The position numbers were made by a program, and so were the translations under genes. Shown piece by piece: positions 8,201-64,000 of a stretch of DNA of 64,000 nt (the stretch's first letter is position 1; every line of letters begins with the position of its first letter). Under the pieces are notes generated by a model. That model was not told the origin of the DNA. It saw nothing but the letters and a program-made list of their open reading frames with translations, and made no database searches. The stretch is from Balanoglossus misakiensis. Taxonomy: Eukaryota > Animalia > Hemichordata. The stretch covers positions 5,239,009 to 5,303,008 of the forward strand of contig CM082591.2 in the NCBI GenBank assembly GCA_040954595.2, read 5' to 3'.

Positions 8201-11200
8201 GAGTCGAACCACACGTACCCGTTCACTGTTGAGAGACAGACAACCACTTTACTGTAAGCTCGATTTCATTTTTCCAAGTCGATTGAAACTGGTTTTATTT
8301 CCAGCCAGGGTGCCAAGAATCCTGGCACCCTGGGCCTGTTGGGCTTCCAGGTGCGTGTTACTCAGTAGGGCCTATACAAGACTCTCAAACCAATACAGTG
8401 CAAAGCAGTATATTTTACAGGGGGTTCAGACTGCAAAGTGTGTCTAACTTAAGTACGTATGAGAGCCATGTCAAGCCAATCAAAATACGTTTTAGAAGAA
8501 AAAGTGGCAAGTACGTATTTTAAGGGACTTGACACTCTAAACAGGTATGACACCCAGTAGCATTAGGGTTAAACTCACCTGGGTTGTTTTGGAACGTATC
8601 TATCATAACTCATCTGATGCTTCAGTGGAATAAGAGGACGGATCTCTTCATAGAGAATCATTCTCTTCGGATTGTTCAGTACAACTTTCAAGTCTTTTAT
8701 CAGCTGCTCCACAGACATATCCCTGCAAAACAAAATGCATGAGTTGATATTGTGCAATCAGATAATGTACAGAAAATTATACACACATTAACTGGCAATA
8801 ACAGCATACCGGGCCTGTTATATCCCTAAAAAGTTGCAAGATTTGAGATTTCAGATTTTCATAAGAGAAGATTGTGGAAACTAATATACAGAAATAGGAT
8901 ACATACTGTTTGTATGTTTTGAGGGATTGGAACAGTAAATCCCTCTCATTGTCATCTTCAATCATCATCTGGACCTGTGAAAATATCAAATTTAAGAAAA
9001 GTGTCGTGAGTGAAAATACTGATGTATGGTATGCTAGTGGAAATAACAAAGATTCATTCAATAATATTTTTTTTTTATCAAAATGACAAGTTGACTGATA
9101 TGGAAATGTTCAATATGGCTTCACAAAATGACAACACACCAATGCTTTACAAATACATGTATAGCATATATGTAAACACCCCTGTCTGCTTAGCTGGTAG
9201 AGAAAAAATGGTTTTGTGTTGCTCTGCAGAAAGAGACCTATTTTCATGTCTGGCATCCAAGGCATGCAGTTGATTGAGACACAGAAGTAGGACAGGTTTT
9301 GAACACATTTTTGTGTAGCTTACAAATTACATTATGTGTCAGACCGACGCAGGTAAAAAAATATCTAAACCACTGGTTTATCAGCAGATAACGGTAAAGG
9401 TCCTGTGACAAGGGCGGTACACATCTACATACCCCAAATCTACCACAGTACCAAATGTCCACCATCCTTAACAAAAATATTTTCACGCTGAACTTGGCAA
9501 CCATCAGTACAGTTCAAACAAACACCTTATTCCTAATATCTATCTAGTAATTATATCATTCAAATATGATTCCACTGGCCACAAGCGTTAGCCTACCTGC
9601 TTCTTTTTGTTAAAAAAAAGTTTCATAATCAAATGTTCCTCACATTGCCCTGACTGTGAATCAAGGCATAGGTGTTCCGTTTTTCAGTGGAACCGAGCCT
9701 TGGAATTTGTACACGTATGCAACCTAATCCTCGCCTACCGTTTCCTGTAAGCCCCTTGCGTTTTTCTGAACTTCAGCATAGCTCCTCGGAAAGTCTCCCA
9801 TGCTTCTGTTGTAAGGATCGATTGATATACGTAGAATTTGATCAAGGAAAAACCACGGTCAGACACAAAGTTGGGCAAGGACCAAATACTTGGGACCAGA
9901 GTGCAATGTGTATTTTTTATTAAATGCTTATCATTGGATTGTTTCAATACCTGATTGGGAGGGGGGAGGGGCTACTTTCTGAAACTGAATGAAACAAAAA
10001 TTCAATTTTTTGTTGTGAAACATTTTCTTATCTCTGGACAACTATATTTCTAGTCAGTTCATTCTAGCTCATTGTCCAAGTTTGGATTTTGAAATCCTGG
10101 AGTGAAACATTCTCCAATTATTTGATTTTTGTCTGGATGCAGCGACTGAACAATGAAATATGCCAACTGCACACTTTGACCTAATCAGTCAACCATTAGT
10201 TTGATTTGATTTAACATTGATAAAAACAGATTTGACAGGTAAGAAAGCCTGCCCTCAAACAGCAATTATGTGAACAATTTTGTTTTCTGTAACAGGTGGT
10301 TTTCATGATTAAACTACATCTTCACTACAAGTAGCGTTATATCATTTCTCTACCTAAACTGTTTTTAGGTATATAGATAAACTCATACATAGACAAAAAA
10401 TACTGTAAAGGAATTTACACTTGTAAAATGAAGAGTCGTTCACTCAAGATGTTTGCAAAATTCTTATCTGGTATTGCCCTGTATACAGTTTTTACATGAA
10501 TGTACCTTTTGTGTGTTGGGTGGGGTATGACCTCGCTTTTGTCTGAATGCTCTCAGGGGCACTGTTTATGGTGTTTCTGTTGGTCTACAGTCATACATTG
10601 TGTTTATACAAACATAAGATTCACATACCACTTACAACCCACTGAAAGACATTTTACTCCAAAATATCTCTCCTTGCTCTGAGGCAAAGTCACTTCTTTC
10701 TGAAGAAAGTAACATTTCAAAGTAAAATGTGTACGTTTGGGACCATAAAATGACCAAATGGCCAACAATATATCTATAGTCCAACCTAGTTTTACAAGGT
10801 GTTTTATGGTCTGATTTATACTAACCAATATAAATTGAACCCGAGTACTCGCTCTCAATAACTTTGCTGTATAAGAACTAAGGCGTTCTAGTGACAACCT
10901 CTTGACTTAGTTTTCAGCGAGCGTCTTTCTTGTATGATCCTTCACATATACGTAACCAGGCAACCATAAAAACTAAAATTTTATACTACATTACATATCC
11001 ACCCCACTGCACTAACATATTCTGGATTTTAGAATAGATTCTCTGTGCTAAAAATGTACACTTTACGCGACCTAACACTATTTCGAGTGTACCAAACGGT
11101 GTTAACCTAGAAGTGGTTTCCTCTGACAAATTTTCCGACGACTGGGTACCCGACAAAGATTGTACGAATGGGGTCAAACGTCAGGAAATCTATGACAACA

Positions 11201-13149
11201 TACAATGTATACATTGTAGCGGACGAAATGCTCTGAAACAAACAACTTGATGTTCGTTTCAATGTCCGTTAACTCCCAATTGTCAGTTTCATTCAAGTCA
11301 TTTACACCACATGTTTATGTAAATGTAAACCGAGCAACAGAAAAATTATATTTTTGTCTTTCACTATTTTTCCAGTCCAAACAGATCGTCAGGTGACGAC
11401 ATTTGCAAACTCACTTTCCCTTTATTTACCAACGACCAAAGCACTTGGGACCAGAGTGCAATGTGTATTTTTTATTAAATGCTTATCATTGGATTGTTTC
11501 AATACCTGATTGGGAGGGGGGAGGGGCTACTTTCTGAAACTGAATGAAACAAAAATTCAATTTTTTGTTGTGAAACATTTTCTTATCTCTGGACAACTAT
11601 ATTTCTAGTCAGTTCATTCTAGCTCATTGTCCAAGTTTGGATTTTGAAATCCTGGAGTGAAACATTCTCCAATTATTTGATTTTTGTCTGGATGCAGCGA
11701 CTGAACAATGAAATATGCCAACTGCACACTTTGACCTAATCAGTCAACCATTAGTTTGATTTGATTTAACATTGATAAAAACAGATTTGACAGGTAAGAA
11801 AGCCTGCCCTCAAACAGCAATTATGTGAACAATTTTGTTTTCTGTAACAGGTGGTTTTCATGATTAAACTACATCTTCACTACAAGTAGCGTTATATCAT
11901 TTCTCTACCTAAACTGTTTTTAGGTATATAGATAAACTCATACATAGACAAAAAATACTGTAAAGGAATTTACACTTGTAAAATGAAGAGTCGTTCACTC
12001 AAGATGTTTGCAAAATTCTTATCTGGTATTGCCCTGTATACAGTTTTTACATGAATGTACCTTTTGTGTGTTGGGTGGGGTATGACCTCGCTTTTGTCTG
12101 AATGCTCTCAGGGGCACTGTTTATGGTGTTTCTGTTGGTCTACAGTCATACATTGTGTTTATACAAACATAAGATTCACATACCACTTACAACCCACTGA
12201 AAGACATTTTACTCCAAAATATCTCTCCTTGCTCTGAGGCAAAGTCACTTCTTTCTGAAGAAAGTAACATTTCAAAGTAAAATGTGTACGTTTGGGACCA
12301 TAAAATGACCAAATGGCCAACAATATATCTATAGTCCAACCTAGTTTTACAAGGTGTTTTATGGTCTGATTTATACTAACCAATATAAATTGAACCCGAG
12401 TACTCGCTCTCAATAACTTTGCTGTATAAGAACTAAGGCGTTCTAGTGACAACCTCTTGACTTAGTTTTCAGCGAGCGTCTTTCTTGTATGATCCTTCAC
12501 ATATACGTAACCAGGCAACCATAAAAACTAAAATTTTATACTACATTACATATCCACCCCACTGCACTAACATATTCTGGATTTTAGAATAGATTCTCTG
12601 TGCTAAAAATGTACACTTTACGCGACCTAACACTATTTCGAGTGTACCAAACGGTGTTAACCTAGAAGTGGTTTCCTCTGACAAATTTTCCGACGACTGG
12701 GTACCCGACAAAGATTGTACGAATGGGGTCAAACGTCAGGAAATCTATGACAACATACAATGTATACATTGTAGCGGACGAAATGCTCTGAAACAAACAA
12801 CTTGATGTTCGTTTCAATGTCCGTTAACTCCCAATTGTCAGTTTCATTCAAGTCATTTACACCACATGTTTATGTAAATGTAAACCGAGCAACAGAAAAA
12901 TTATATTTTTGTCTTTCACTATTTTTCCAGTCCAAACAGATCGTCAGGTGACGACATTTGCAAACTCACTTTCCCTTTATTTACCAACGACCAAAGCACA
13001 GGCCGGGCGGAATGATATCGCTCTATGGTCTTGGAGTCGGAATAACCACCCCAATAATTTATCAAACGCCATTCTGGTCAAAAAATTAGCACAGTTAACT
13101 GTCGAAAACGTACCTTTTGGCCAAACTCCTTCGCTAAACGTCGATCCAT
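2247..13149 (-). CDS. USH1C: Harmonin (Usher syndrome 1C protein), N-domain + PDZ1 + PDZ2 + coiled coil + PDZ3 + C-terminal PDZ-binding motif
   Basis: Phase-consistent GT-AG exons: 13114-13149 ([12 protein letters not shown], cf. human MDRKVAREFRHK), 8907-8974, 8579-8722 ([10 protein letters not shown]), 8084-8225 (PDZ1 FGFSIRGG), 7521-7629, 7123-7205, 6796-6969, 6218-6334, 5858-6006, 5240-5570, 4550-4702, 3310-3463 (PDZ3 [14 protein letters not shown]), 2850-2959, 2573-2634, 2247-2259, ending EDEITFF* (human DDELTFF). Confidence 0.95.
3784..3866. mobile_element. piggyBac-type MITE (~90 bp), one of about 8 copies
   Basis: TTAA-CCCTTTCAC...GTGAAAGGG-TTAA ends; related copies at ~4205-4295, ~14570-14655, ~18936-19037, ~20199-20285, ~21404-21496, ~21805-21894, 24456-24547. 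Confidence 0.75.
6510..6842. repeat. ~80-bp degenerate tandem repeat (about 4 units) derived from a USH1C exon 3' end and splice donor
   Basis: CCCTTACCTTGAT recurs at ~6630, 6710 and 6790 (more degenerate at ~6550); the 6790 copy is the real exon/donor junction. Confidence 0.85.
7664..7828. mobile_element. TA-flanked Tc1/mariner/pogo-type MITE
   Basis: TACAGTCAAACCTGT...ACAGGTAGCCTGTA ends; related fragments at ~22755-22871, ~37020-37181, ~52796-52860, ~54620-54790. Confidence 0.65.
9888..12997. repeat. Apparently perfect 1555-bp tandem duplication in USH1C intron 1
   Basis: Copy 1 is 9888-11442 and copy 2 is 11443-12997; three ORF pairs in the track are identical at offset 1555 (10500/12055, 10604/12159, 10986/12541). 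Confidence 0.95.
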
Positions 13150-42700: not shown

Positions 42701-43568
42701 ACTACCCCCCCCCCCCCCAATGAAAAAACTGAGAAGCCGGATTTCCATTGAAATGTACGTGCAGTGACGCATGTATTCGAATCCTTCAAGTTCCTATTTT
42801 TGTCTGTATAACAAGCAAGGTCGTGTACAGTGAATCCTCTAAACTGACTGTGGGCAGTGACACTGTGGTTAAAAAAATCAGCGTCACCCGTTAACAAAAA
42901 AGCTCAACAAACCGATAGCACCAGGAGAATTGTTTTCTCAATATCTTCGAAAACAATTTTTACAGAACGCCTGACAAGCAGTGTTTCATTCCAGGCTTTT
43001 GTTGAAGATAAAATCGGTGGACGACCTGAACAGTGATTTTGTCCAGGAGATATTTAGAGAGATTAAAGAAGGGTAAACGACCCTGATCATAGCGACAAGA
43101 ATCGTATAATTCAGCTCTTGTAAAACCAAAATATTCGTGATACGGTCGTTCACCTACCCCGACCTCCTGTGATTGCTGTATCCGTCTAAATGAAGAAAGT
43201 ACAGTACGTGTTTCTAAGCAGTCGAGCGCCGCACACGGAACGGCCAACGACCGCGACAGACCCGTCCATGACCTTTGAAACGTTTACTCTACATTACATC
43301 AACAATCGACAATGCATGCACACGTGTGCCACTTCCGTCGTACAGCCTGAATATTAGCACCAGTCTTTCTTTTAAAAAAAGCTGACAATCATTTGACGAA
43401 CGATCATTCACACCTTCCATGACCGATCGCACTAGCAAAGCGCTACTTACTGATAATCCCGGCCGTCGGTTCGCCCCCCGACATGATTCTGCTGCTAGTG
43501 AAGTGACGGCTTAGAGAAACAAGACGGCGAGTTGAGGTAGACGCTACCGGCGAATAAGACAGAAACAT
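36767..43568 (-). CDS. FLAD1: FAD synthase (molybdopterin-binding-like domain + PAPS-reductase-like FADS domain)
   Basis: Exons 43451-43568 (alt ATG 43484), 42307-42401 ([14 protein letters not shown]), 40924-41047 ([15 protein letters not shown]), 40651-40766, 39745-39885 (FPGIP), 39403-39551 (GSYP), 39107-39195, 38583-38808 (GFNGGKDC), 38245-38343, 37698-37819 (MGTRKADP), 37368-37509 ([15 protein letters not shown]), 36767-36965 (YSSLG); phases compatible. Confidence 0.95.
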
Positions 43569-44274
43569 GGCATCGCCTGCATGTAGATTTCGTATATGTG
43601 CACAGCTGATTGATGTGTCAAAGGTCATATTGACATAACCTCGATTTGATGTCTGGGACGCGTCGCTGGACTGTGATTAGTTTAATTTCTTTAATTGTAA
43701 ATTCTCATTTCTAGGGTTAATTATCGAGCGTTTTTACTAAACTGATATCGCTGAGTTGCGAGGTGTACATGTATTTGCTTAGTGCATGTAGTGTACTTCA
43801 TTTCCCCAGTCACGTGAGACGCAGTGATCGACAATCACAGTACCTGCGCTAAGTAGCATGGGAAATCAACTATGGTGGTCGAGGAAATTGATTTCATGTC
43901 CAATTCACAATTCCGTTTCATTCGCAAAGTATTTGTTTTATTCATTCACCCGGTAAAAAAATATGATTTATCGATACATTATGTAAGTATCATTTTTAGG
44001 GATGACCGAGGTACATGTACATACATGTATGAGGGGGAGTTTTTGTGAAAAGTGACAAACGTTTAAAAATGAAATTGCAACTTGCAAGACAAATCATGTA
44101 CGATTGTGTTCCAGTGAAGTGTGCTATTTCTGTGTGTCTGTGCGCTTGTTTCGCTGTTTATCGGTATAGCTCCTTTTGGAGGATGTGTGGCCCTGAAAAG
44201 GGTCGTTTTGTGCGGTGTGTTCACTATCCACACAGCGACGTACATTTCTGTGGGTTTTTTTCCGTGGCCCTTCC

Positions 44275-44883
44275 TCAGGGCACGGGGTATTGCTCGGCGA
44301 TATCCTGCAAGATGTTCCGCACCGCCTCGTCGCCCGCTCTCCCGAACCGCTCCCTCCACCTCGACTCGTCCAAATACCCCGGCAGCAATTTCTTGGCCAC
44401 GCCTTTCATTCTCCTCGCTTTGGCCTTATGGCGGTGGCTTTCCTGGGCCACTTTTCCCTGTCCGGCGTCGTCCGGGTGGGAATAATCTTCGCTGGACAGC
44501 TTCTTACTGCAGACCTGTCGCAATGTTTTGCAGTGCTCGATCAAAGCATGCGTCGACACTCCAGTCTCGATGTGTATCTTATTCAACGGGTAGTCCATAG
44601 CCCACGTTATAATAATCTTCAAAAGCACGTCCAGACCCAAGCGAGACCTGGAGAAGAATGACCACTGTCTCACTGAAACTCTGGTCCCGTATTTATCGCA
44701 ACCCCTCTGCATGCAACGCCACGTAAACCCGTCAGAGTTATTTTTCGTCCGTGACCAAGTCATGGGTTGTTTACAAGAAAGACAATCTTGACAGGTCGCC
44801 AAAAGCCCGTGTTCTTTCAGAAACGGTATGGTCTGGTCAACACCCTGGACTGCGCAAGCTTGAGCACGTCGATACAAAGCCAT
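44275..44883 (-). CDS. Intronless 202-aa protein derived from a Merlin/IS1016 (ISXO2-like) transposase, DDE core deleted
   Basis: FLKEHGLL, CxxC...DGFTWRC zinc-ribbon-like segment, SVRQWSFFSRSRL and ETGVS...LRQVC match the Merlin N-terminus; RMKG...LLPGYLDESRWRERFG...ILQDIAEQYP matches the C-terminus; no V(E/Q)IDES or WVFG core. ATG at 44883; minus-strand AATAAA at 43937-43942. Confidence 0.75.
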   Translation of the reverse strand: MALYRRAQACAVQGVDQTIPFLKEHGLLATCQDCLSCKQPMTWSRTKNNSDGFTWRCMQRGCDKYGTRVSVRQWSFFSRSRLGLDVLLKIIITWAMDYPLNKIHIETGVSTHALIEHCKTLRQVCSKKLSSEDYSHPDDAGQGKVAQESHRHKAKARRMKGVAKKLLPGYLDESRWRERFGRAGDEAVRNILQDIAEQYPVP

Positions 44884-44949
44884 GTCGACATGTAATTCAC
44901 GATTTATCCCTGTATTCACGGTACCGGTAACACGGAAGCGTTAATCCTA

Positions 44950-45200
44950 CGCACATCATCCGACCTTTGACCTTGTCTGGTCGCCTGCTCATCCTCACCG
45001 CTGGCGGCGCTGCTCACGGGGAAGGCGTGGTCAGAAAGGGGGCAGGGAACAAGACAACGTATACACCTGGCTAATACAAGTACATGTATTTTCCATCCAG
45101 CAACCCTAGGTAATTAGCATATAGAAGCTATTTCTTTGTGACGTCAATCAGTGGGCGGAGCTCAAATGCTAATAACCAACCGCTACCAGGTGGCAAATAC
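44950..45200. promoter_or_regulatory. Promoter-like segment upstream of the Merlin-derived ORF
   Basis: CRE TGACGTCA at 45139-45146, GC-box GGGCGGAGC at ~45153, CTCF-like CTACCAGGTGGCAAA at ~45183; motif matches only. Confidence 0.4.
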
Positions 45201-45495
45201 TATAGTATGCCTTGTTGGTTGAGTTCCTCACAGAGACAAACGTAAACGCGTTTATTTCTTTTCAGTCATTTTATGCGAAACTTGATCGTCAATTTGTATG
45301 GTCGCCCGACGGCTAAACCATAGTTTCAGTGCTTACATTCTCGGAAGTAAAATTATCGACCTCCACCATGAATTATCACCTCCGCACCCAGAAAATAGAA
45401 GAAAAAAAAATGAATACTGGTAATATTTCAATCGAATCTTGAACGCGGCCACTAACGACATAATCGTTAGAACCCCGGACATCTATAGTATGTTT

Positions 45496-48030
<2,535 letters not shown>

Positions 48031-48169
48031 TCATTGCAGCCAGAACGCAACGCCTTCATTAACATATGCAAATGAGGAATCTGATTCGAAAAACGATATA
48101 CTAGTATTTGCGTACTCTCATCCCTTATAATAATTATCACCAAGCTAAATTTGGATAAGCTAAGCCGCC

Positions 48170-48222
<53 letters not shown>

Positions 48223-48235
48223 CCATCATCATCAT
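48170..48235. repeat. (CAT)n microsatellite
   Basis: Direct reading. Confidence 0.95.
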
Positions 48236-48441
48236 TAACAACAACATAACAAATAAATATTTCAAGTTGATATTTGCACCATCAACAGCTATTGCAACCT
48301 GTATTTTTTTCGCTTAACATTACTGTAATACATGTCTCGGCAAAAAAATGAGCATAGACAAAATAGATGAGCGCGTGTAAATTTTAGCACAAGGAACAAA
48401 AATTCTGCAAAATAAAGCCGAAAGTTACAGCTAACGTCTCT

Positions 48442-51083
48442 TTATTTATATTCAAAATCAGGAGTATACGGACGGGTCTTGATCCACTCGGCAATCTTCG
48501 GCAAGGCTTCGACGCGTTCCTTCAGCGCTTTCAACTTCGGATAAGAATTCAGCATATCAGGGGAGGAGTGAAATAACATGAAATCCACTTTATCGACGAA
48601 CACAAGGTCAGCCACGGTCAACTGAAATGGCATGGAGAAATTATGAGAATTAACTTATTGAAGTGGCTAAGTAGAGAGATTGGCACGAACCCTGGCTTTG
48701 AATTAAAAATCCTGGGTCAACTATATTTTAATCTCGGTGATATAATTATATATTTATTTACATAATTCATCCATAGCAAACACAGAAAGCATGTCTACTT
48801 AGGATTGGATGACTGGAAGTGGTGCGAATCACCTATACAAAGCCAGTCCCCTCAGGGCAATGAGAAGTAAAGTGCCTTGCTCAAGGGCACAGCATCGGGA
48901 CCATGACGTCACCGCCTAGTCAGAAAGAAAATCCACGGCCATGTCCAAGTCTGAGTATCGACCGGACCCCACAACCCTCCGATTGTGAGTCCCGGTTCCC
49001 ACACCACTATAGGCCGAGTGATTAAACAATTTAAAGATGTCAGCTGGGATAACACCACTCACATTCTCTCCGATTAAATAACCATCGCCTCCCCGGTTTT
49101 CTATCAACAGTTTCTCCAACGCAGTCAGAAGTCTCGGCAGCAACAGGTCCTTCAGTTTCTTGTACCACGCTGCCTGTGGGACGTGATAGAATGTGACACT
49201 GACAATCATAAATGGTCCTATGAGTAACAGCAACAGTGAGTTCTGCAAACACGAGTCTATTCTTACACGTTAAAAGTGAAATACCATGCGGAAGTCACGT
49301 GATGACTTCGGCTTACACGCCCAGAGATCTCGCAGGGTCTCGCGGAGTTCTGAAAGTATATTCTTATGCACGTCACAAGTGAAATACCAAGCGGAAGTCA
49401 CGTGACGGCTTCGGTTTACACGCCCAGAGATCTCGCAGGGTCTCGCGGAGTTCTGAAAGTATATTCTTATGCACGTCACAAGTGAAATACCAAGCGGAAG
49501 TCACGTGATGACTTCGGCTTACACGCCCAGAGATCTCGCAGGGTCTCGCGGAGTTCTGAAAGTATATTCTTATGCACGTCACAAGTGAAATACCAAGCGG
49601 AAGTCACGTGACGGCTTCGGTTTACACGCCCAGAGATCTCGCAGGGTCTCGCGGAGTTCTGAAAGTATATTCTTATGCACGTCACAAGTGAAATACCAAG
49701 CGGAAGTCACGTGACGGCTTCGGCTTACACGCCCCACCTTACGAGGTTTGTCCTCTTCGTACCAGACGTTGATCACTAAGGGTTCATAGATTTCAGATAT
49801 TGCCGACATGATCATGGTAATCCTGGCCTTCTCCAAATTGCTTGTACCACCCAATCCTACCCGGACAGGTGAGATAAAAGATAGCATTTTGAAATACTCG
49901 TTTGGAGGTTGTCCTGTCGACATATCTCGGGGAAATACCGCGATAAGCAAAATAGAAGAACGGAGTTTTAATTTTGATATTATGACCTGCGTTTAGTGTT
50001 TTACTGCATTTTAATTACCATTTTGTATTCTCTCTTCGGCTGTAGTTCTATTTACATCGTCGGCATATGTCGTACACTCGCTATTTTAAAAGTGACGCGC
50101 ATATTTACCAAATTTAGACAGGTGCGCGCGCAAACTTACCAAATTCGTTGCCTAGATACTGTGCGATGGCCATGGACTCCGCCAAAACTACACCATCAAA
50201 TTCAAGGATGGGTAATTTACTGAATAGATATCCTATTATACAAAACAAAATAAGTTATTCGAAGTGTTGAAACCCCTGAAAATATATTTTTTTCGTAGTT
50301 TTATCTTTACATTAGCTGTAAGCCAACTCGGACTTTTTCGGAAAGAAATCGAAGTGCAAAAATCAAATAAGCTCAGCTGCAGAATTAATAGACACAGAGA
50401 GAAAGCCAGTAGCATATGTTCAGTAAACTCAATACATATACTAGTATAAATATCTTTATCCTATCTTAAAATTAGCTGCATTCTGCTATTAATAGGTGGA
50501 CGCCTATGTTTAACAATGTTTAACGGATAGCGGGTTGTCTCGCCTGTACATGTACATGATTTCACATTGTTTAAACCTACGAGACAGGATTCTAAAATAA
50601 ATCGCAGTTGAAGACATACGTTGGAACAAAGTGAATAGTTGACAGCCGCGTACGGTATTTGGACGAGTCAGACAAAGGCAGAGGTAACGTTTTAAGGCGC
50701 ACCCTCTTTCAATAAAAACCCACACGGATTTGATGAAGACTTCGGTGGACAACAAAGGCTTTCCACCACGTAAATATGCAATGTCAACATCAACTGATGC
50801 GAGAACCAAGGATTGAAAACTGTAAGCCTAGCAAGGTATGGGTGTCCTGACCTCTATAAAAGGTTAGAGTCTACCCGCTTGAGTGGAACCAGATTGTAAA
50901 GGACTCAGTGAGTCGCGCCTTACTTTCTCGCCCCGGGTCTTCAGCCCGCCTCTTTGCGGGCCATTCCTCGTCGCTGTAGCGAACGTCTTCGAAATCGACC
51001 CCGGCCGCTGCAAAGATGAGGCGGATGAACTCCGCGTGGCAGCGGTAGTCCGAGTAGGTGAGCTTGTATTTCGGCGCGGCCAT
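48442..51083 (-). CDS. Glutathione S-transferase, sigma-class-like (copy 2, tandem paralog)
   Basis: Exons 50924-51083, 50140-50232 (LPILEFDG...AESMAIAQYL), 49738-49856, 49063-49173, 48442-48621; exons 2-5 have the same lengths as copy 1 (93/119/111/180 nt). Confidence 0.93.
48750..49016 (-). mobile_element. tRNA-derived SINE with CORE-like central motif in GST copy 2 intron 4
   Basis: Minus strand begins GGCCTATAGTGGT (A-box-like) with a tRNA-like head, then TGTGCCCTTGAGCAAGGCACTTTAC (resembles the CORE-SINE motif) and ends in an AT-rich tail. Confidence 0.6.
49275..49735. repeat. 103-bp minisatellite, about 4.5 copies, filling most of GST copy 2 intron 3
   Basis: Near-identical ORFs at a 103-nt offset (49270, 49373, 49476, 49579); unit contains GCGGAAGTCACGTGA. 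Confidence 0.95.
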
Positions 51084-51197: not shown

Positions 51198-51401
51198 TAT
51201 ACTGTAAAACACTTTTTTTTCGCGAGTCAAAATTTTCGCAATATCGAGAGAGGCCACTGTTACGCGAGTATTACTTTTCGCGTTTTCACACATTGTTCTT
51301 TCACAACTATATGTACGCGAGTCTTTATTTTCGCGTAGTTTTGGCTCTCGCGTATTTAGCGTAAATTTAATGCTCGCGAAAATAAAGTGTTTTACAGTAT
51401 A
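51198..51401. mobile_element. MITE directly upstream of GST copy 2
   Basis: TATACTGTAAAACACTTT...TTCGCGAG pairs with CTCGCGAAAATAAAGTGTTTTACAGTATA; internal TTTTCGC subrepeats. Confidence 0.75.
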
Positions 51402-51461: not shown

Positions 51462-52017
51462 TAGCTCTGCGTACAGGTCTGTGTTGTTCCCGGCGTTACA
51501 CGGCCTCCACCCACAGCCCTGCAAGGCGCCATAGAAAAAACTGGTGCTTCTGCGGTCCGGATCCGGACCGCAGCTTTTTCGGCCGAAATTCGATTTTATC
51601 GAAGCAAAATCCTTTCCCTGTCTACTTCTGCCTCCTAACCGACTCCAAATATGATGCGATTAACTTGTCCTAACGTCCGAGCCGCTCGCTTTCTAAAACT
51701 TTTTTGTTTACCCATGGAGATAAACTCGCTGTAAGCCTTATATTTAATATGGCGATCTCAACATGTAAACACACAAAAATGAATCAAACGCGAGTGGTTC
51801 GGACGTTAGGACAAGTTAATCGCATCATATTTGGAGTCGGTTAGGGGGCAGAAGTAGACAGGGAAAGGATTTTGCTTCGATAAAATCGAATTTCGGCCGA
51901 AAAAGCTGCGGTCCGGATCCGGACCGCAGAAGCACCAGTTTTTTCTATGGCGCCTTGCAGGGCTGTGGGTGGAGGCCGTGTAACGCCGGGAACAACACAG
52001 ACCTGTACGCAGAGCTA
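51462..52017. mobile_element. Young non-autonomous DNA transposon, 219-bp near-perfect TIRs, 9-bp TSD
   Basis: Arms 51462-51680 and 51799-52017 are reverse complements (one mismatch noticed); termini TAG...CTA; perfect flanking direct repeat AACGGGGGT at 51453-51461 and 52018-52026. Confidence 0.92.
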
Positions 52018-57389: not shown

Positions 57390-59672
57390 TTATATTTCCG
57401 GCAAAGCTATTTCGGAGTAAACCTCCGTGGTGGGATCGCCTTTGGTAGAGCGGCTTCTGTCGTTGGTACCTTCCGGTACACCTCCCGCAGTCTTGCCGTG
57501 GGACTTGGTGACCGCTTTACGGCGGCAGTACCTGATCGCGAACACCGTTCCAACTGACGCCACGGCGGTGAACATACCGAGGAAAAAGCCAACCACTGCG
57601 TAGTCGTTCACAGGTTGGACCGACGCGAATTTGGCGCAGTTTGTTGCCGCTGCAGTAGGTTTCTTTTCATCTGTAATTATCGGTTGTGTTGTGATGCTTG
57701 AGCTTACTGTTGGGACAGCCACGTCTGTTGATAATTGGCCGATATGCGTGTTTGTATGCACAGTTATACCAGTAGTTGTATCCGTTCCCGAAGCTATACC
57801 AGAAGTATCCATATCTGTATCTGTACCTGCAGTATTTGCGTATGTTTCACTTCCTGCATCTATAAACGTATCTCTTTCTGTATTTCCATCCGTATCTGTA
57901 TCTGTACTTGCAGTATTTGCGTATGTTTCACTTCCTGCATCTATAAACGTATCTCTGTCCGTATTTCCATCTGTATCTGTATGTGTATCTGAACCTGTAG
58001 CTGCAGTTCCATCTTCACCTGTATTTGCATCTCTTGTGATTTCTGTAGTGCCAGCATTAACCATTCTTGGACTTGTGTTGTGATTTGTAGCTGTTGGTGG
58101 TATGATGGCTCCTGACAGTGGCCCTTCTGAAGGCTTTTCTGTTTTGGAAGCAGATTCCTCTTTGACAACCGTTGACATGTCTGCAGGTGTTGACGGCATG
58201 GTTTCTGTTGTTCCAATTTGAATAGGCTGTCCCGTGGAATTTATGTTAAGCATTCTAATTCCTACGGATGTCCCTTCCGAGTTCGTCGCCACGCACGAAT
58301 ACGAACCCAACTCTGACACCTCTACAGATGGGATGAAGAGATTTCCATTATCTTGTTGAACAATCTTTTCCTCAGAGCACGGGTTCTCTGTTTGACTTCG
58401 GATAATCTTTCCTGCAGGACTGACCCAATATCTATCAGGTTCCGGCTCGCCAAATACGTCACAGTCCATAGCTACATTGTTGCCAACTGCAGTGGTGATT
58501 GTTTTGATTGGTGCATTGAATACCGGAAGTGGGTAACATGTAAAATTCTCTAAAGGCATCTGCAACATATCACGTCCTGCAAGGAGACCCGGTGATTTGC
58601 ATCTCGTAACTTCATTTTCATAGCCGAAGTTTATCCATCTGTCTTCAGCATTCAACCATGCCATGAAGTCTCGTAAACGACAGTCACAAGACCATGGATT
58701 GCCATTCAAGAATAGTGATTGTAATTTGCCTTGTTCTTGGACAATATTTCCGGCTAGTGTTGAAAGATTATTATCCCGCAGATGGATGTCTGTCAACTGA
58801 TGTAACCCATGAAAAGTCTTTTCTGGCAAAGATGTGAGAGCATTGTTTGATAAACTTAGGATTTCCAACTTAGACAGTCCATGGAAAATGGTTTCTGGCA
58901 GCGAATGTATAGCATTGCCGCTCAAAAGCAACATGGTTAGTTCTCCTACGTCACGAAACATATTTTCATGTAATAGGATGATCTCATTATTGTACAATAG
59001 TAGTCGTTGAAGATTTACCAGGCCGTGGAATAAAATGTCCGGGAGACAAGTGAGCTTATTGTCCTTCAGAATAATTTCTTCCAGGTTTGTTAGGCCATGG
59101 AAGACAGTTCCTGGCAAATACGTGAGTAGATTGTGAGATAAGTCTATTATTGTTAATTTGACCGTTTTCTTAAATATGCTGACGGGGAGCGTTGTGACTT
59201 GATTGCGATCGAGTCGGAATATTGTCAGTTCCTGGCAGTTGTCTAGTATCGTTTCTGGTAATGCACTTATCCTGTTCTGGTTTAAGTTAAGCGCAGCCAA
59301 CTGTTGCAGCTCACTGAAAACATTCGCGGGCAAAGACGCCAAACGGTTGAAGCTCAGGTACAGAATGGTCAGACGTGGGAGACCGGTAAATGCACCCTCT
59401 TCTACGTGGTCAATTTCATTGGAATTCAGATACAGCTCAGCCACATGGGGATTGCTGATGAACGAGCCATTTTCAACGCGTCTCAAAAGATTACCGCCGA
59501 GCTGGAGAATGGTGGTGGCCAATGGTATGTCGGGAGGGACGGCAGTCATATCTCGGTACGCGCAGGAAACCGTGGTCCCGAAGCAATCGCAGTCGGATGG
59601 ACACCCGTGTACTGCTTGCAGTAGTGTAATAGAAATACAAACAACCAGAATGATCCTTCGCGAACCCTCCAT
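57390..59672 (-). CDS. Type I membrane LRR-Ig receptor (signal peptide, LRRNT, about a dozen LRRs, LRRCT, one Ig domain, Thr-rich stalk, TM, short tail)
   Basis: Single coding exon; MEGSRRIILVVCISITLLQAVHG signal peptide, CPSDCDC LRRNT, LxxLxLxxNxL repeats, GNPWSCDC LRRCT, Ig (C...W...GSYSC), TM AVVGFFLGMFTAVASVGTVFAI; acceptor at 59706 implies an upstream 5'UTR exon. Confidence 0.92.
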   Translation of the reverse strand: MEGSRRIILVVCISITLLQAVHGCPSDCDCFGTTVSCAYRDMTAVPPDIPLATTILQLGGNLLRRVENGSFISNPHVAELYLNSNEIDHVEEGAFTGLPRLTILYLSFNRLASLPANVFSELQQLAALNLNQNRISALPETILDNCQELTIFRLDRNQVTTLPVSIFKKTVKLTIIDLSHNLLTYLPGTVFHGLTNLEEIILKDNKLTCLPDILFHGLVNLQRLLLYNNEIILLHENMFRDVGELTMLLLSGNAIHSLPETIFHGLSKLEILSLSNNALTSLPEKTFHGLHQLTDIHLRDNNLSTLAGNIVQEQGKLQSLFLNGNPWSCDCRLRDFMAWLNAEDRWINFGYENEVTRCKSPGLLAGRDMLQMPLENFTCYPLPVFNAPIKTITTAVGNNVAMDCDVFGEPEPDRYWVSPAGKIIRSQTENPCSEEKIVQQDNGNLFIPSVEVSELGSYSCVATNSEGTSVGIRMLNINSTGQPIQIGTTETMPSTPADMSTVVKEESASKTEKPSEGPLSGAIIPPTATNHNTSPRMVNAGTTEITRDANTGEDGTAATGSDTHTDTDGNTDRDTFIDAGSETYANTASTDTDTDGNTERDTFIDAGSETYANTAGTDTDMDTSGIASGTDTTTGITVHTNTHIGQLSTDVAVPTVSSSITTQPIITDEKKPTAAATNCAKFASVQPVNDYAVVGFFLGMFTAVASVGTVFAIRYCRRKAVTKSHGKTAGGVPEGTNDRSRSTKGDPTTEVYSEIALPEI

Positions 59673-60375
59673 GATGCACTTGTCCACGGAGGTTGACGTC
59701 GTCCCCTGCAAGCAACATGGACCGGGATATGCTTGTTCAAAATGTTAAGCTCGTAATTATAGATACACACTCATCATTTAGAAGAAAGGAACAGATCAAC
59801 GTGACACACTGAGAAATGTTGCCACACACACACACACCACTGTTAAAGCCCCATGTATCCTGGTTAAAATGGATTTGAAATGAGCTAACATGTTTTTTGC
59901 AGGTCACGCTAAGAAGGGCAGCTACTAAGTGGTTGCTTTTCAATTGAACAAGGTAGAGGAAAGAAAGAAAATGACCAGAGAAAATAGCTTAAGATGAATG
60001 GACGTATGCCAGTGTAGGCGCAATGGCTGAGAGAGCAAAAATGACGTCAATGAAAGTGACGGGATTGGTGCATTAACCAATGTTTAATAGTCTGCCCGCA
60101 GGTGCTGTAAGAAAATCAGTATAAGCCTTGATTCGTTGCTTGGCCCTGTACGCAGACTTGGGATGTTTTTGTTCGGTGCGAACAATTGTATTGAAATCTC
60201 AAAACGACCGGTGTGTTATAGAAGGGTGGGAGAAAGGAATGTACTATTCTACTATACTAACCGGGAGATGGTGAAATGCGGAAAGGGTCATGCCATGGCG
60301 AGTACTTCGGGCGTGGTAATTGTACCATGACAGACACAGGTCTCAGGTCGTGTCTGGGTCATGATGTATCAATGG

Positions 60376-62948: not shown

Positions 62949-64000
62949 TCAGGTTGCTTTTAAACTTTCATAAGTGTTCGCATCTTGAGTTTCTGGAGAT
63001 AGAGACGCGTACACAGCTTCCGTCCCATCGGCCACTGCAGCGTTTACATTTACATGTCCGGATTGGGCTTGATCATAGCCAGTCGTCGCTTGTGAAACGG
63101 AGGGGTCAGATTGCAGGTCTCCTAAATCTATGTCGGGCCCATTCCCTGAGGCTTGTTTAGCAGCATCCTGATTATCATGTGGTTTTCTTCCCCGCTTATG
63201 GCGACAGTGTCTTATTCCAAACAATAATCCAACCAGCAAAGCAGCTGTGAGAATGCCGAGAAAGAATCCGATCACCACCCCTACAAAGCCGGTAACAGAC
63301 GGGACATCTGTGTTATCAAATGTAGTATGCGTTGCAACAACGGTTTTCTCAGAGTGTGTTCCTGTTGATGGTACGGTTGTTTCTGTGGATATGGTCGTTA
63401 TTGTTGGGACCACATTATTTCCCTTGACTGTTGAAGATAACGGGACAGTCTGGTCTACGTCACGGATGTTTAGTACCCTTACCCCCAACGATGTCCCTTC
63501 TGCGTTGGTGGCCACGCAGGAATACGAACCCGAGTCTGCCATTTCAACGGATGAGATCAGGAGGCTCCCGTTGTCAACCTGAACCAACTTTTCATGCGAA
63601 CACGCATTCTGCATTTGAGGGTATACAGCCTCCCCACCAGGGGTGAGCCAATATTTAAATGGGTCTGGTACACCTACTACGTCACAATCCAGAGTTACAT
63701 CGTCACCCACGTCGGTGATTATCACTTCGAATACTGTCACAGTGCTAAATACCGGAAGTGGACAACACGTCATGTTGTCCGGTGGTATTTGCAATAACTC
63801 ACGTCCTGCAAGATGATCTGGTGAATTACACACCGTTGGTAAATATCCCAAATTCAATCGATGACTGTTGTCATCCAGCCACAGTCTGAAATCTCGTAAA
63901 CGGCAGTCACACGACCAAGGATTATCGTTAATGTATAAATAACGTAATTTGTCAAGTCCATGGAAAATGTTGCCCGGTAAAGTTGTGATGTCGGTACTGT
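62949..64000 (-). CDS. Second LRR-Ig transmembrane receptor paralog (5' part outside window)
   Basis: Frame open to window end (LPGNIFHGLDKLRYLYINDNPWSCDCRLRDF), Ig domain closely similar to paralog (GSYSCVATNAEGTS), TM VGVVIGFFLGILTAALLVGLLFGI, tail ending EAVYASL...NTYESLKAT*. Confidence 0.9.
   Translation of the reverse strand, partial: STDITTLPGNIFHGLDKLRYLYINDNPWSCDCRLRDFRLWLDDNSHRLNLGYLPTVCNSPDHLAGRELLQIPPDNMTCCPLPVFSTVTVFEVIITDVGDDVTLDCDVVGVPDPFKYWLTPGGEAVYPQMQNACSHEKLVQVDNGSLLISSVEMADSGSYSCVATNAEGTSLGVRVLNIRDVDQTVPLSSTVKGNNVVPTITTISTETTVPSTGTHSEKTVVATHTTFDNTDVPSVTGFVGVVIGFFLGILTAALLVGLLFGIRHCRHKRGRKPHDNQDAAKQASGNGPDIDLGDLQSDPSVSQATTGYDQAQSGHVNVNAAVADGTEAVYASLSPETQDANTYESLKAT

Follow-up and report, generated by a model that had tools for sequence, protein, structure and literature searches.

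Can a transposase gene that has lost its catalytic core persist as a gene of its host? The question is raised by a locus of the hemichordate Balanoglossus misakiensis, located in a stretch of 64,000 nucleotides of contig CM082591.2 (positions 5,239,009 to 5,303,008), hereafter called the window. A candidate domesticated Merlin transposase gene with a cleanly deleted DDE core had been predicted there from the letters alone. The open reading frame (ORF) of 202 amino acids was found as described, with neither stops nor frameshifts. It is flanked by a GST gene upstream and by FLAD1 downstream, and all three are on the same strand. The ATG of FLAD1 is at 43568, 369 nt past the AATAAA that follows the ORF, in agreement with the predicted distance of about 370 bp and the predicted shared orientation. 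Later exons of FLAD1 match MoCF_biosynth and FAD synthase structures. Because the RNase-H core has been lost in frame and the remaining protein is under strong purifying selection, the ORF is likely a domesticated host gene. The features of the locus are listed in Table 1.

Table 1. Features of the core-less Merlin locus (window coordinates).
Feature	Position	Strand	Basis or remark
Intact single-exon ORF, 202 aa, Merlin transposase derivative without RNase-H core	44275..44883	-	
Cys-rich predicted zinc ribbon (C34, C37, C57, C62)	44698..44784	-	Alignment and model
Three-helix HTH-like region, aa 84-131	44491..44634	-	Model
Deletion junction and flexible linker, aa 132-149	44437..44490	-	Alignments; pLDDT 52-60
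Retained C-terminal helices (RMKG..YLDE..WR..F..IL.DI..YP)	44290..44436	-	Alignments and models
Histone-type stem-loop and purine-rich HDE-like box	44163..44209	-	Rfam RF00032; overlooked in the original prediction
AATAAA, candidate poly(A) signal	43937..43942	-	Unchanged in the second haplotype
FLAD1 (FAD synthase), coding exon 1	43451..43568	-	Exon 1-2 junction in run X3
Multicopy palindromic repeat with CRE and GC box	45086..45200	.	Arms 45086-45120 and 45166-45200

Merlin ancestry and loss of the catalytic core

The proposed Merlin/ISXO2 origin of the ORF was confirmed by its homologues and by a profile-profile match. A HMMER search of 1.84 billion representatives gave 1049 homologues at E<=0.001, and the homologues of about 300 aa that were tested carry DDE_Tnp_IS1595, the Merlin/ISXO2 domain. 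Among the best 150 of the 1049, full-length Merlins of about 300 aa are 27-40% identical to the ORF. A profile built from the ORF and the related sequence P0001 matched 38 longer Merlin-type proteins with a probability of 100 and an E-value of 1.4e-49. Zinc-ribbon and partial ISXO2-like matches had been expected from Pfam, but no family was returned for the ORF, nor for P0001. A search among longer proteins gave none of 571 candidates. In a profile search with the ORF and P0001, 82 of 1847 candidates matched, none of them except P0001 closely and over the full length. No relative was present among 146 pattern matches in JGI metagenome contigs.

The in-frame absence of the DDE core was evident as one gap of about 100 residues in the alignment of the ORF and P0001 profile to longer relatives, corresponding to residues 150-249 of the full-length relative P0006. 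Five strands are predicted for this part of P0006, and none after residue 70 in the model of the ORF. The P0006 model resembles the cores of integrases and transposases, with 126 matches at E<=0.001. Foldseek with the short ORF model found nothing at E<=0.001. All three catalytic positions are lost or displaced in the ORF.

The junction was placed differently from the original prediction, in which LRQVCSKKL continued directly into the late NHS..F.DP....IES region. Residues 130-149 fit the early GGPG..VQIDES strand better in 21 of 31 full-length proteins, and the late NHS..DP..IES region better in 7. For the junction of P0001 the corresponding numbers were 27 and 2 of 31. P0001 reads VETD|RSY and has kept the first Asp, which is gone from the ORF. 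Since the linker and P0001 both fit the first-Asp strand better, the deletion appears to have joined the DES motif to the IES motif, and the alignments indicate that in residues 132-149 the first-Asp strand survives in degenerate form and runs into the Glu helix. The single ES of the ORF could stem from either side of the join; we infer that the deletion was possibly guided by ES codons shared by the two motifs. An assembly artefact at the junction was ruled out, as both haplotypes agree and the junction lies inside one continuous DNA contig (44166-44673).

The predicted model of the ORF was confident and compact (pLDDT 90, pTM 0.85). It consists of the same N-terminal elements as P0006, followed by three C-terminal helices that are connected via the low-confidence linker. 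The predicted zinc-ribbon region forms short strands; C57 is invariant and C34 and C37 are nearly invariant in the family alignment, and Atlas neighbours carry Zn_ribbon_IS1595 at 0.90-0.92. The three helices of the HTH-like region (84-95, 100-107 and 111-131) were predicted with pLDDT above 90. The top structural matches of the ORF model in VIA-align were mostly HTH DNA-binding domains, though weak, the best Z of 4.8 being within background. Homodimer prediction gave a score of 0.31, compared to a mark of 0.32, and was not counted as evidence.

Among 86 proteins no longer than 285 aa, 13 keep both ends without the core; these 13 count the ORF and P0001, and their junctions vary. Some of the other eleven may be gene-calling artefacts. 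P0014 (from a Caligus transcriptome), P0043, P0096, P0012, P0030 and P0093 are core-deleted Merlins with different junctions and with the C-terminal helices in frame. Such proteins could possibly represent a recurrent architecture, or again be artefacts of gene calling. A separate group, P0002, P0003, P0004, P0005, P0009, P0013 and P0016, consists of proteins of 825-1687 aa, each with Merlin modules in tandem, two or three in number, whose DDE motifs are degenerate. P0002 is named from the krill Meganyctiphanes norvegica. These tandem-module proteins are likely another Merlin domestication.

Copies, ends and selection

No TIRs or TSD had been noticed at the ORF, and scanning both sides of it, as far as FLAD1 and the GST gene, led to the same result. 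The flanks (43580-44274 and 44884-45509) contain two weak 12-nt pairs, neither with an 8-9-bp TSD, and no TIRs starting with GG and accompanied by an 8-9-bp TSD were found in them. Copy number, which had been suggested as a check, was low. In genome B1, of the same species, one other locus was present among the matches listed, with 80% identity to the ORF. The match to this paralogue, located at C2:5322762-5323375 of B1 (614 versus 611 nt), is confined to 44278-44888 of the window. In run X2 the contigs of the paralogue are gapless over 139 and 336 nt, and in run X1 one contig is 3 nt longer across the junction, so the paralogue has the same short form. Depth in X1, at an 80% threshold, was 43-163 for the ORF and 36-79 for the flanks. 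A 43-nt match with loose ends in the reads suggests a third sequence of greater divergence. Among the contigs listed there was no core-bearing copy at >=80% identity; a diverged active Merlin family may exist in the host genome. By DNA alignment, the ORF was matched only in B1 among 15 genomes, and these alignments revealed no syntenic orthologue in another species.

P0001, a Logan contig of 942 nt, is 51% identical to the ORF over its whole length and has the same short form. A quick tree was made with 73 rows from the ORF and 81 matches, from which proteins >450 aa and those with short N-terminal cover were dropped. P0001 was sister to the ORF with SH-aLRT 99, and the end branches were 0.87 for the ORF and 0.2 for P0001. 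It is unlikely that P0001 is the paralogue of the host genome: the paralogue contig has no N-terminal gap, and of the 10 residues obtained by hand translation of a loose end of 30 letters, 3 are not those of P0001.

Selection was studied by comparison with a second haplotype, L001, which is the same locus in genome B1 (91-93% identity). The ORF is found at the same position in both haplotypes. A dN/dS below 1 had been named as a check of the domestication, and in this one haplotype pair 19 synonymous and 0 non-synonymous differences were observed, the encoded proteins being identical. Under neutrality this ratio has P 3e-13 to 2e-11 for transition weights of 1 to 4. No indels were present in the ORF, compared to 9.2 expected (P 1e-4) from 42 indels in 2779 nt of flanking non-coding DNA. 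The 19:0 pattern occurs in this frame only, of the six frames. Overlapping ORFs on the + strand were ruled out, the best + frame having 13 synonymous to 6 non-synonymous differences. From the 19:0 ratio and the lack of indels next to indel-rich flanks it follows that the ORF is under strong purifying selection. Variants of B1 recur in runs X1-X3, which therefore likely come from the same animal and add no independent alleles.

Between the haplotypes, the longest stretch without any change lies outside the ORF. It spans 123 nt (43801-43923; permutation P 0.03) and is located shortly after the AATAAA and ahead of FLAD1. It contains a CACGTG box and likely represents promoter elements of FLAD1 or 3' processing elements.

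Promoter motifs, transcription and 3' end signals

The promoter-like region of the original prediction was confirmed only with respect to its motifs. CRE (45139-45146) and GC box (45153-45158) exist, but both are part of a multicopy palindromic repeat and are therefore not evidence of a gene-specific promoter. Depth of the bin with the palindrome was 1046 and 1417, compared to about 40-110 and 40-210 in most bins of the same runs, and thus about 10-20 times that of typical bins; 44817-45085 alone was not high. In the second haplotype 45025-45099 is deleted. The palindromic element may have been co-opted. Head-to-tail joints that lead 96 nt back occur in contigs of the repeat.

Run X3 is labelled 'DNA?' and was taken as RNA-like solely from its spliced joints, namely four CT..AC intron joints and the FLAD1 exon 1-2 junction. 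Two X3 contigs lie over the ORF, at 44128-44499 (depth 5.5) and 44512-44707 (depth 2.3), and the latter has six differences, the same number as haplotype L001 has there. Part of the paralogue is likewise present in X3. The cover of the ORF is low (2.3-5.5), and a probable intronic segment reaches a depth of 2.7. The cover is suggestive of transcription only, as pre-mRNA or DNA background are also possible sources. No read-through into FLAD1 was observed, but X3 does not cover 43571-44083 and is uninformative on this point. The predicted AATAAA was present downstream of the ORF.

A histone-type signal starts 70 nt after the stop codon. The stem is located at 44204-44189, and an intact purine-rich, HDE-like box (44179-44163) is found about 10 nt behind it. 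The match to Rfam RF00032 (Histone3) was 25.6 bits, and thus below the cut-off given by the gathering score of 34. Its E-value was 0.00022 when 2.1 kb were searched and 0.0067 for the whole window, which has no other Histone3 match. The signal resembles the 3' end of replication-dependent histone mRNAs (RF00032; SLBP, U7 snRNP) in its TTTC loop, its A-rich 5' flank, and the position of the purine-rich box and of the signal as a whole. Unlike the histone signal, it follows a non-histone gene, scores below the gathering threshold and is followed by AATAAA. Furthermore, stem position 2 is an A in both haplotypes, which results in an A.C mismatch instead of a G-C pair. The stem-loop pattern was found once, compared to 0.05 expected per 64 kb, with a pattern that was written after the site had been seen. 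Constraint on the stem-loop was rejected as evidence: 44166-44254 is the second-longest unchanged run, but 29% of permutations had one as long. For a named stretch of 46 nt the P value was 0.04.

Apart from the ORF, the only cross-species DNA matches of note came from about 55 nt behind the stop codon. From the same animal, contigs of high depth have 44157-44201 in common with the window and then run on into a canonical G-G stem; they may be histone genes or a mobile element. The HDE-like box is common to these contigs and to L002. L002 (603-1048, + strand) is from genome B2, of the same class, and has a canonical stem-loop and HDE-like box with 36.3 bits in Rfam. About 28 nt ahead of the L002 stem-loop there is a decayed frame, for which a weak match to DDE_1 (pogo-like; E 0.032) was obtained, and at least two more contigs of genome B2 match the same stem-loop motif. 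L003 (1055-900, - strand), from genome B3 of a different phylum, also has an A at position 2 of a histone-like stem-loop, which is followed by AATAAA. A likely tRNA primer-binding site and a copia gag come shortly after the L003 stem-loop, which likely belongs to an LTR. As similar hairpins occur beside the DDE_1 frame in B2 and the copia gag in B3, the stem-loop and HDE-like box of the ORF were likely inherited from its parent element, and the A at a conserved stem position suggests that the signal may be a relic of that element.

According to the available text of bioRxiv 10.64898/2026.10.14.759114, the second base pair of histone stem-loops is a conserved G-C. In the part of PMC3884669 that was available, a mutant altered at the second pair and in the 5' adenosines did not bind SLBP, and SLBP was dispensable for mammalian processing in vitro when the HDE paired strongly with U7. 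With its A at position 2, the stem-loop of the ORF would likely be bound poorly by SLBP. Most of the mRNA would then end at the AATAAA, and U7-guided cleavage could provide a second 3' end. One X3 contig extends about 80 nt beyond the expected cut site, which for a histone-type end would lie 4-5 nt after the stem. It is rather doubtful that the host gene has kept its parent's histone-type 3' end in use, with an mRNA that is wholly or partly cut by the U7 snRNP and non-polyadenylated. If it were so, a cellular gene other than a histone gene would make use of the histone mRNA pathway, and a core-less zinc-ribbon/HTH chromatin protein would be coupled to DNA replication or to eggs. Either outcome would be informative, as the signal is either used or has decayed after domestication. 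In the literature covered, no account of a histone stem-loop downstream of a transposase gene was found. According to the accessible text of PMC4604434, no cellular mRNAs other than those of histones are known to lack polyadenylation, and a selected host gene with a histone-type signal beside an AATAAA makes this claim testable.

Possible function and relation to known systems

Domesticated transposases are well known. For the ORF, the proposed domestication was well supported by the 19:0 ratio, the lack of indels, the low copy number and the absence of TIRs and TSD, as well as by the similarity of the paralogue stopping at the ends of the ORF. The ORF is very probably a functional host gene. 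The protein likely acts as a regulator at host sites, with predicted DNA binding via the zinc ribbon and the HTH-like region, and, provided that the gene is functional, this role is favoured to a modest degree over that of a transposon repressor. The full reading, a domesticated and non-cutting zinc-ribbon/HTH protein that is predicted to bind DNA and acts on the DNA of the host, is given slightly better than even chances. After the deletion, the N-terminal module would have been left packed against the C-terminal helices. The element would have lost its ends, the short gene would then have been duplicated, and this copy would have changed faster than its relatives before becoming fixed.

An explanation without function would be that the ORF is left over from a non-autonomous Merlin element with an internal deletion, evolves neutrally and is open by chance. 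Core-deleted forms are common (the 13 of 86 proteins described above), and the third, more diverged fragment in the reads would also fit. This explanation is nevertheless largely refuted and highly improbable, given the 19:0 ratio without any indel, the lack of TIR and TSD, and the restriction of the paralogue match to the ORF.

The selection signal also fits with a host-kept transposition repressor similar to KP of the Drosophila P element, which would block active elements by binding to Merlin TIRs or by entering transposase multimers. KP arose by truncation at the 3' side and resides on a mobile, multicopy element, and in this it is unlike the fixed ORF gene. Both are deletion derivatives that have kept the DNA-binding part without catalysis, and the size of the ORF, about 200 aa, is similar to the 207 aa given for KP in the available text of PMC7776569. 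KP belongs to another superfamily and, as far as the sources at hand go, is found on small non-autonomous elements; the ORF is a gene without ends and has its C-terminal helices in frame. Retention of these helices would suit a repressor. Also in favour of a repressor, the accessible part of PMC8101967 describes preserved Merlin ORFs in two acorn worm genomes. Neither a close full-length transposase among the best 150 of the 1049 homologues nor a core-bearing copy at >=80% identity among the contigs listed was found, and the 27-40% identity of the full-length Merlins among those best 150 is a weak argument against a close partner to repress. In addition, family-conserved motifs are changed in the ORF (GSFF to WSFF, YLDEF to YLDES) and its branch is long. 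A repressor is accordingly regarded as possible but less likely. The fast change on the ORF branch, the changed aromatic and acidic positions and the weak structural matches to HTH domains could also be explained if DNA binding had been lost and the protein had become a small zinc-containing adaptor or a partner of another protein, e.g. the paralogue. This is considered improbable, as all four Cys and the helical HTH-like arrangement were kept, together with every other non-core part of the transposase. A non-cutting regulator that acts at host sites is the preferred reading.

The ORF resembles transposases of the Merlin superfamily (IS1016/IS1595-related; PF12762; available text of PMC8101967) in its Cys-rich, helical N-terminus and its C-terminal helices. 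It differs from Merlin transposons by having no DDE domain, TIRs, TSD or amplification and by being under purifying selection. Candidate Merlin/ISXO2 genes of ciliates, dinoflagellates and kinetoplastids are likewise conserved ORFs without TIR and TSD and, in the accessible parts of PMC8101967 and PMC5312943, are interpreted as domesticated. As far as described there, the protist candidates keep DDE_Tnp_IS1595, with or without the triad, whereas the ORF is from an animal and has this domain cleanly removed. No animal Merlin-derived gene with the core removed was found in the literature covered, where Merlin/ISXO2 candidates came from protists only, and Merlin is not mentioned in the available part of PMC8700633. 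The ORF indicates that the Merlin N-terminal module and C-terminal helices can persist as a unit without the RNase-H core. The protein could serve as a small model for DNA recognition by Merlin/IS1595 transposases.

Further observations were made in the rest of the window. Tandem GST genes are present at 45500-50000 (- strand), with high depth at 48025-49227 that points to repeats or further copies. Two long hairpin-like stretches (51198-51401 and 51645-51834) gave weak matches to plant miRNA models, far below cut-off, and are probably inverted-repeat elements. The same 100-residue frame occurs at 10607-10906 and 12162-12461, and at least about 300 nt are thus duplicated, 1555 nt apart. Long single-exon frames for leucine-rich-repeat and LRR-Ig membrane proteins are found at 57393-59744 and 62952-63998 (- strand).
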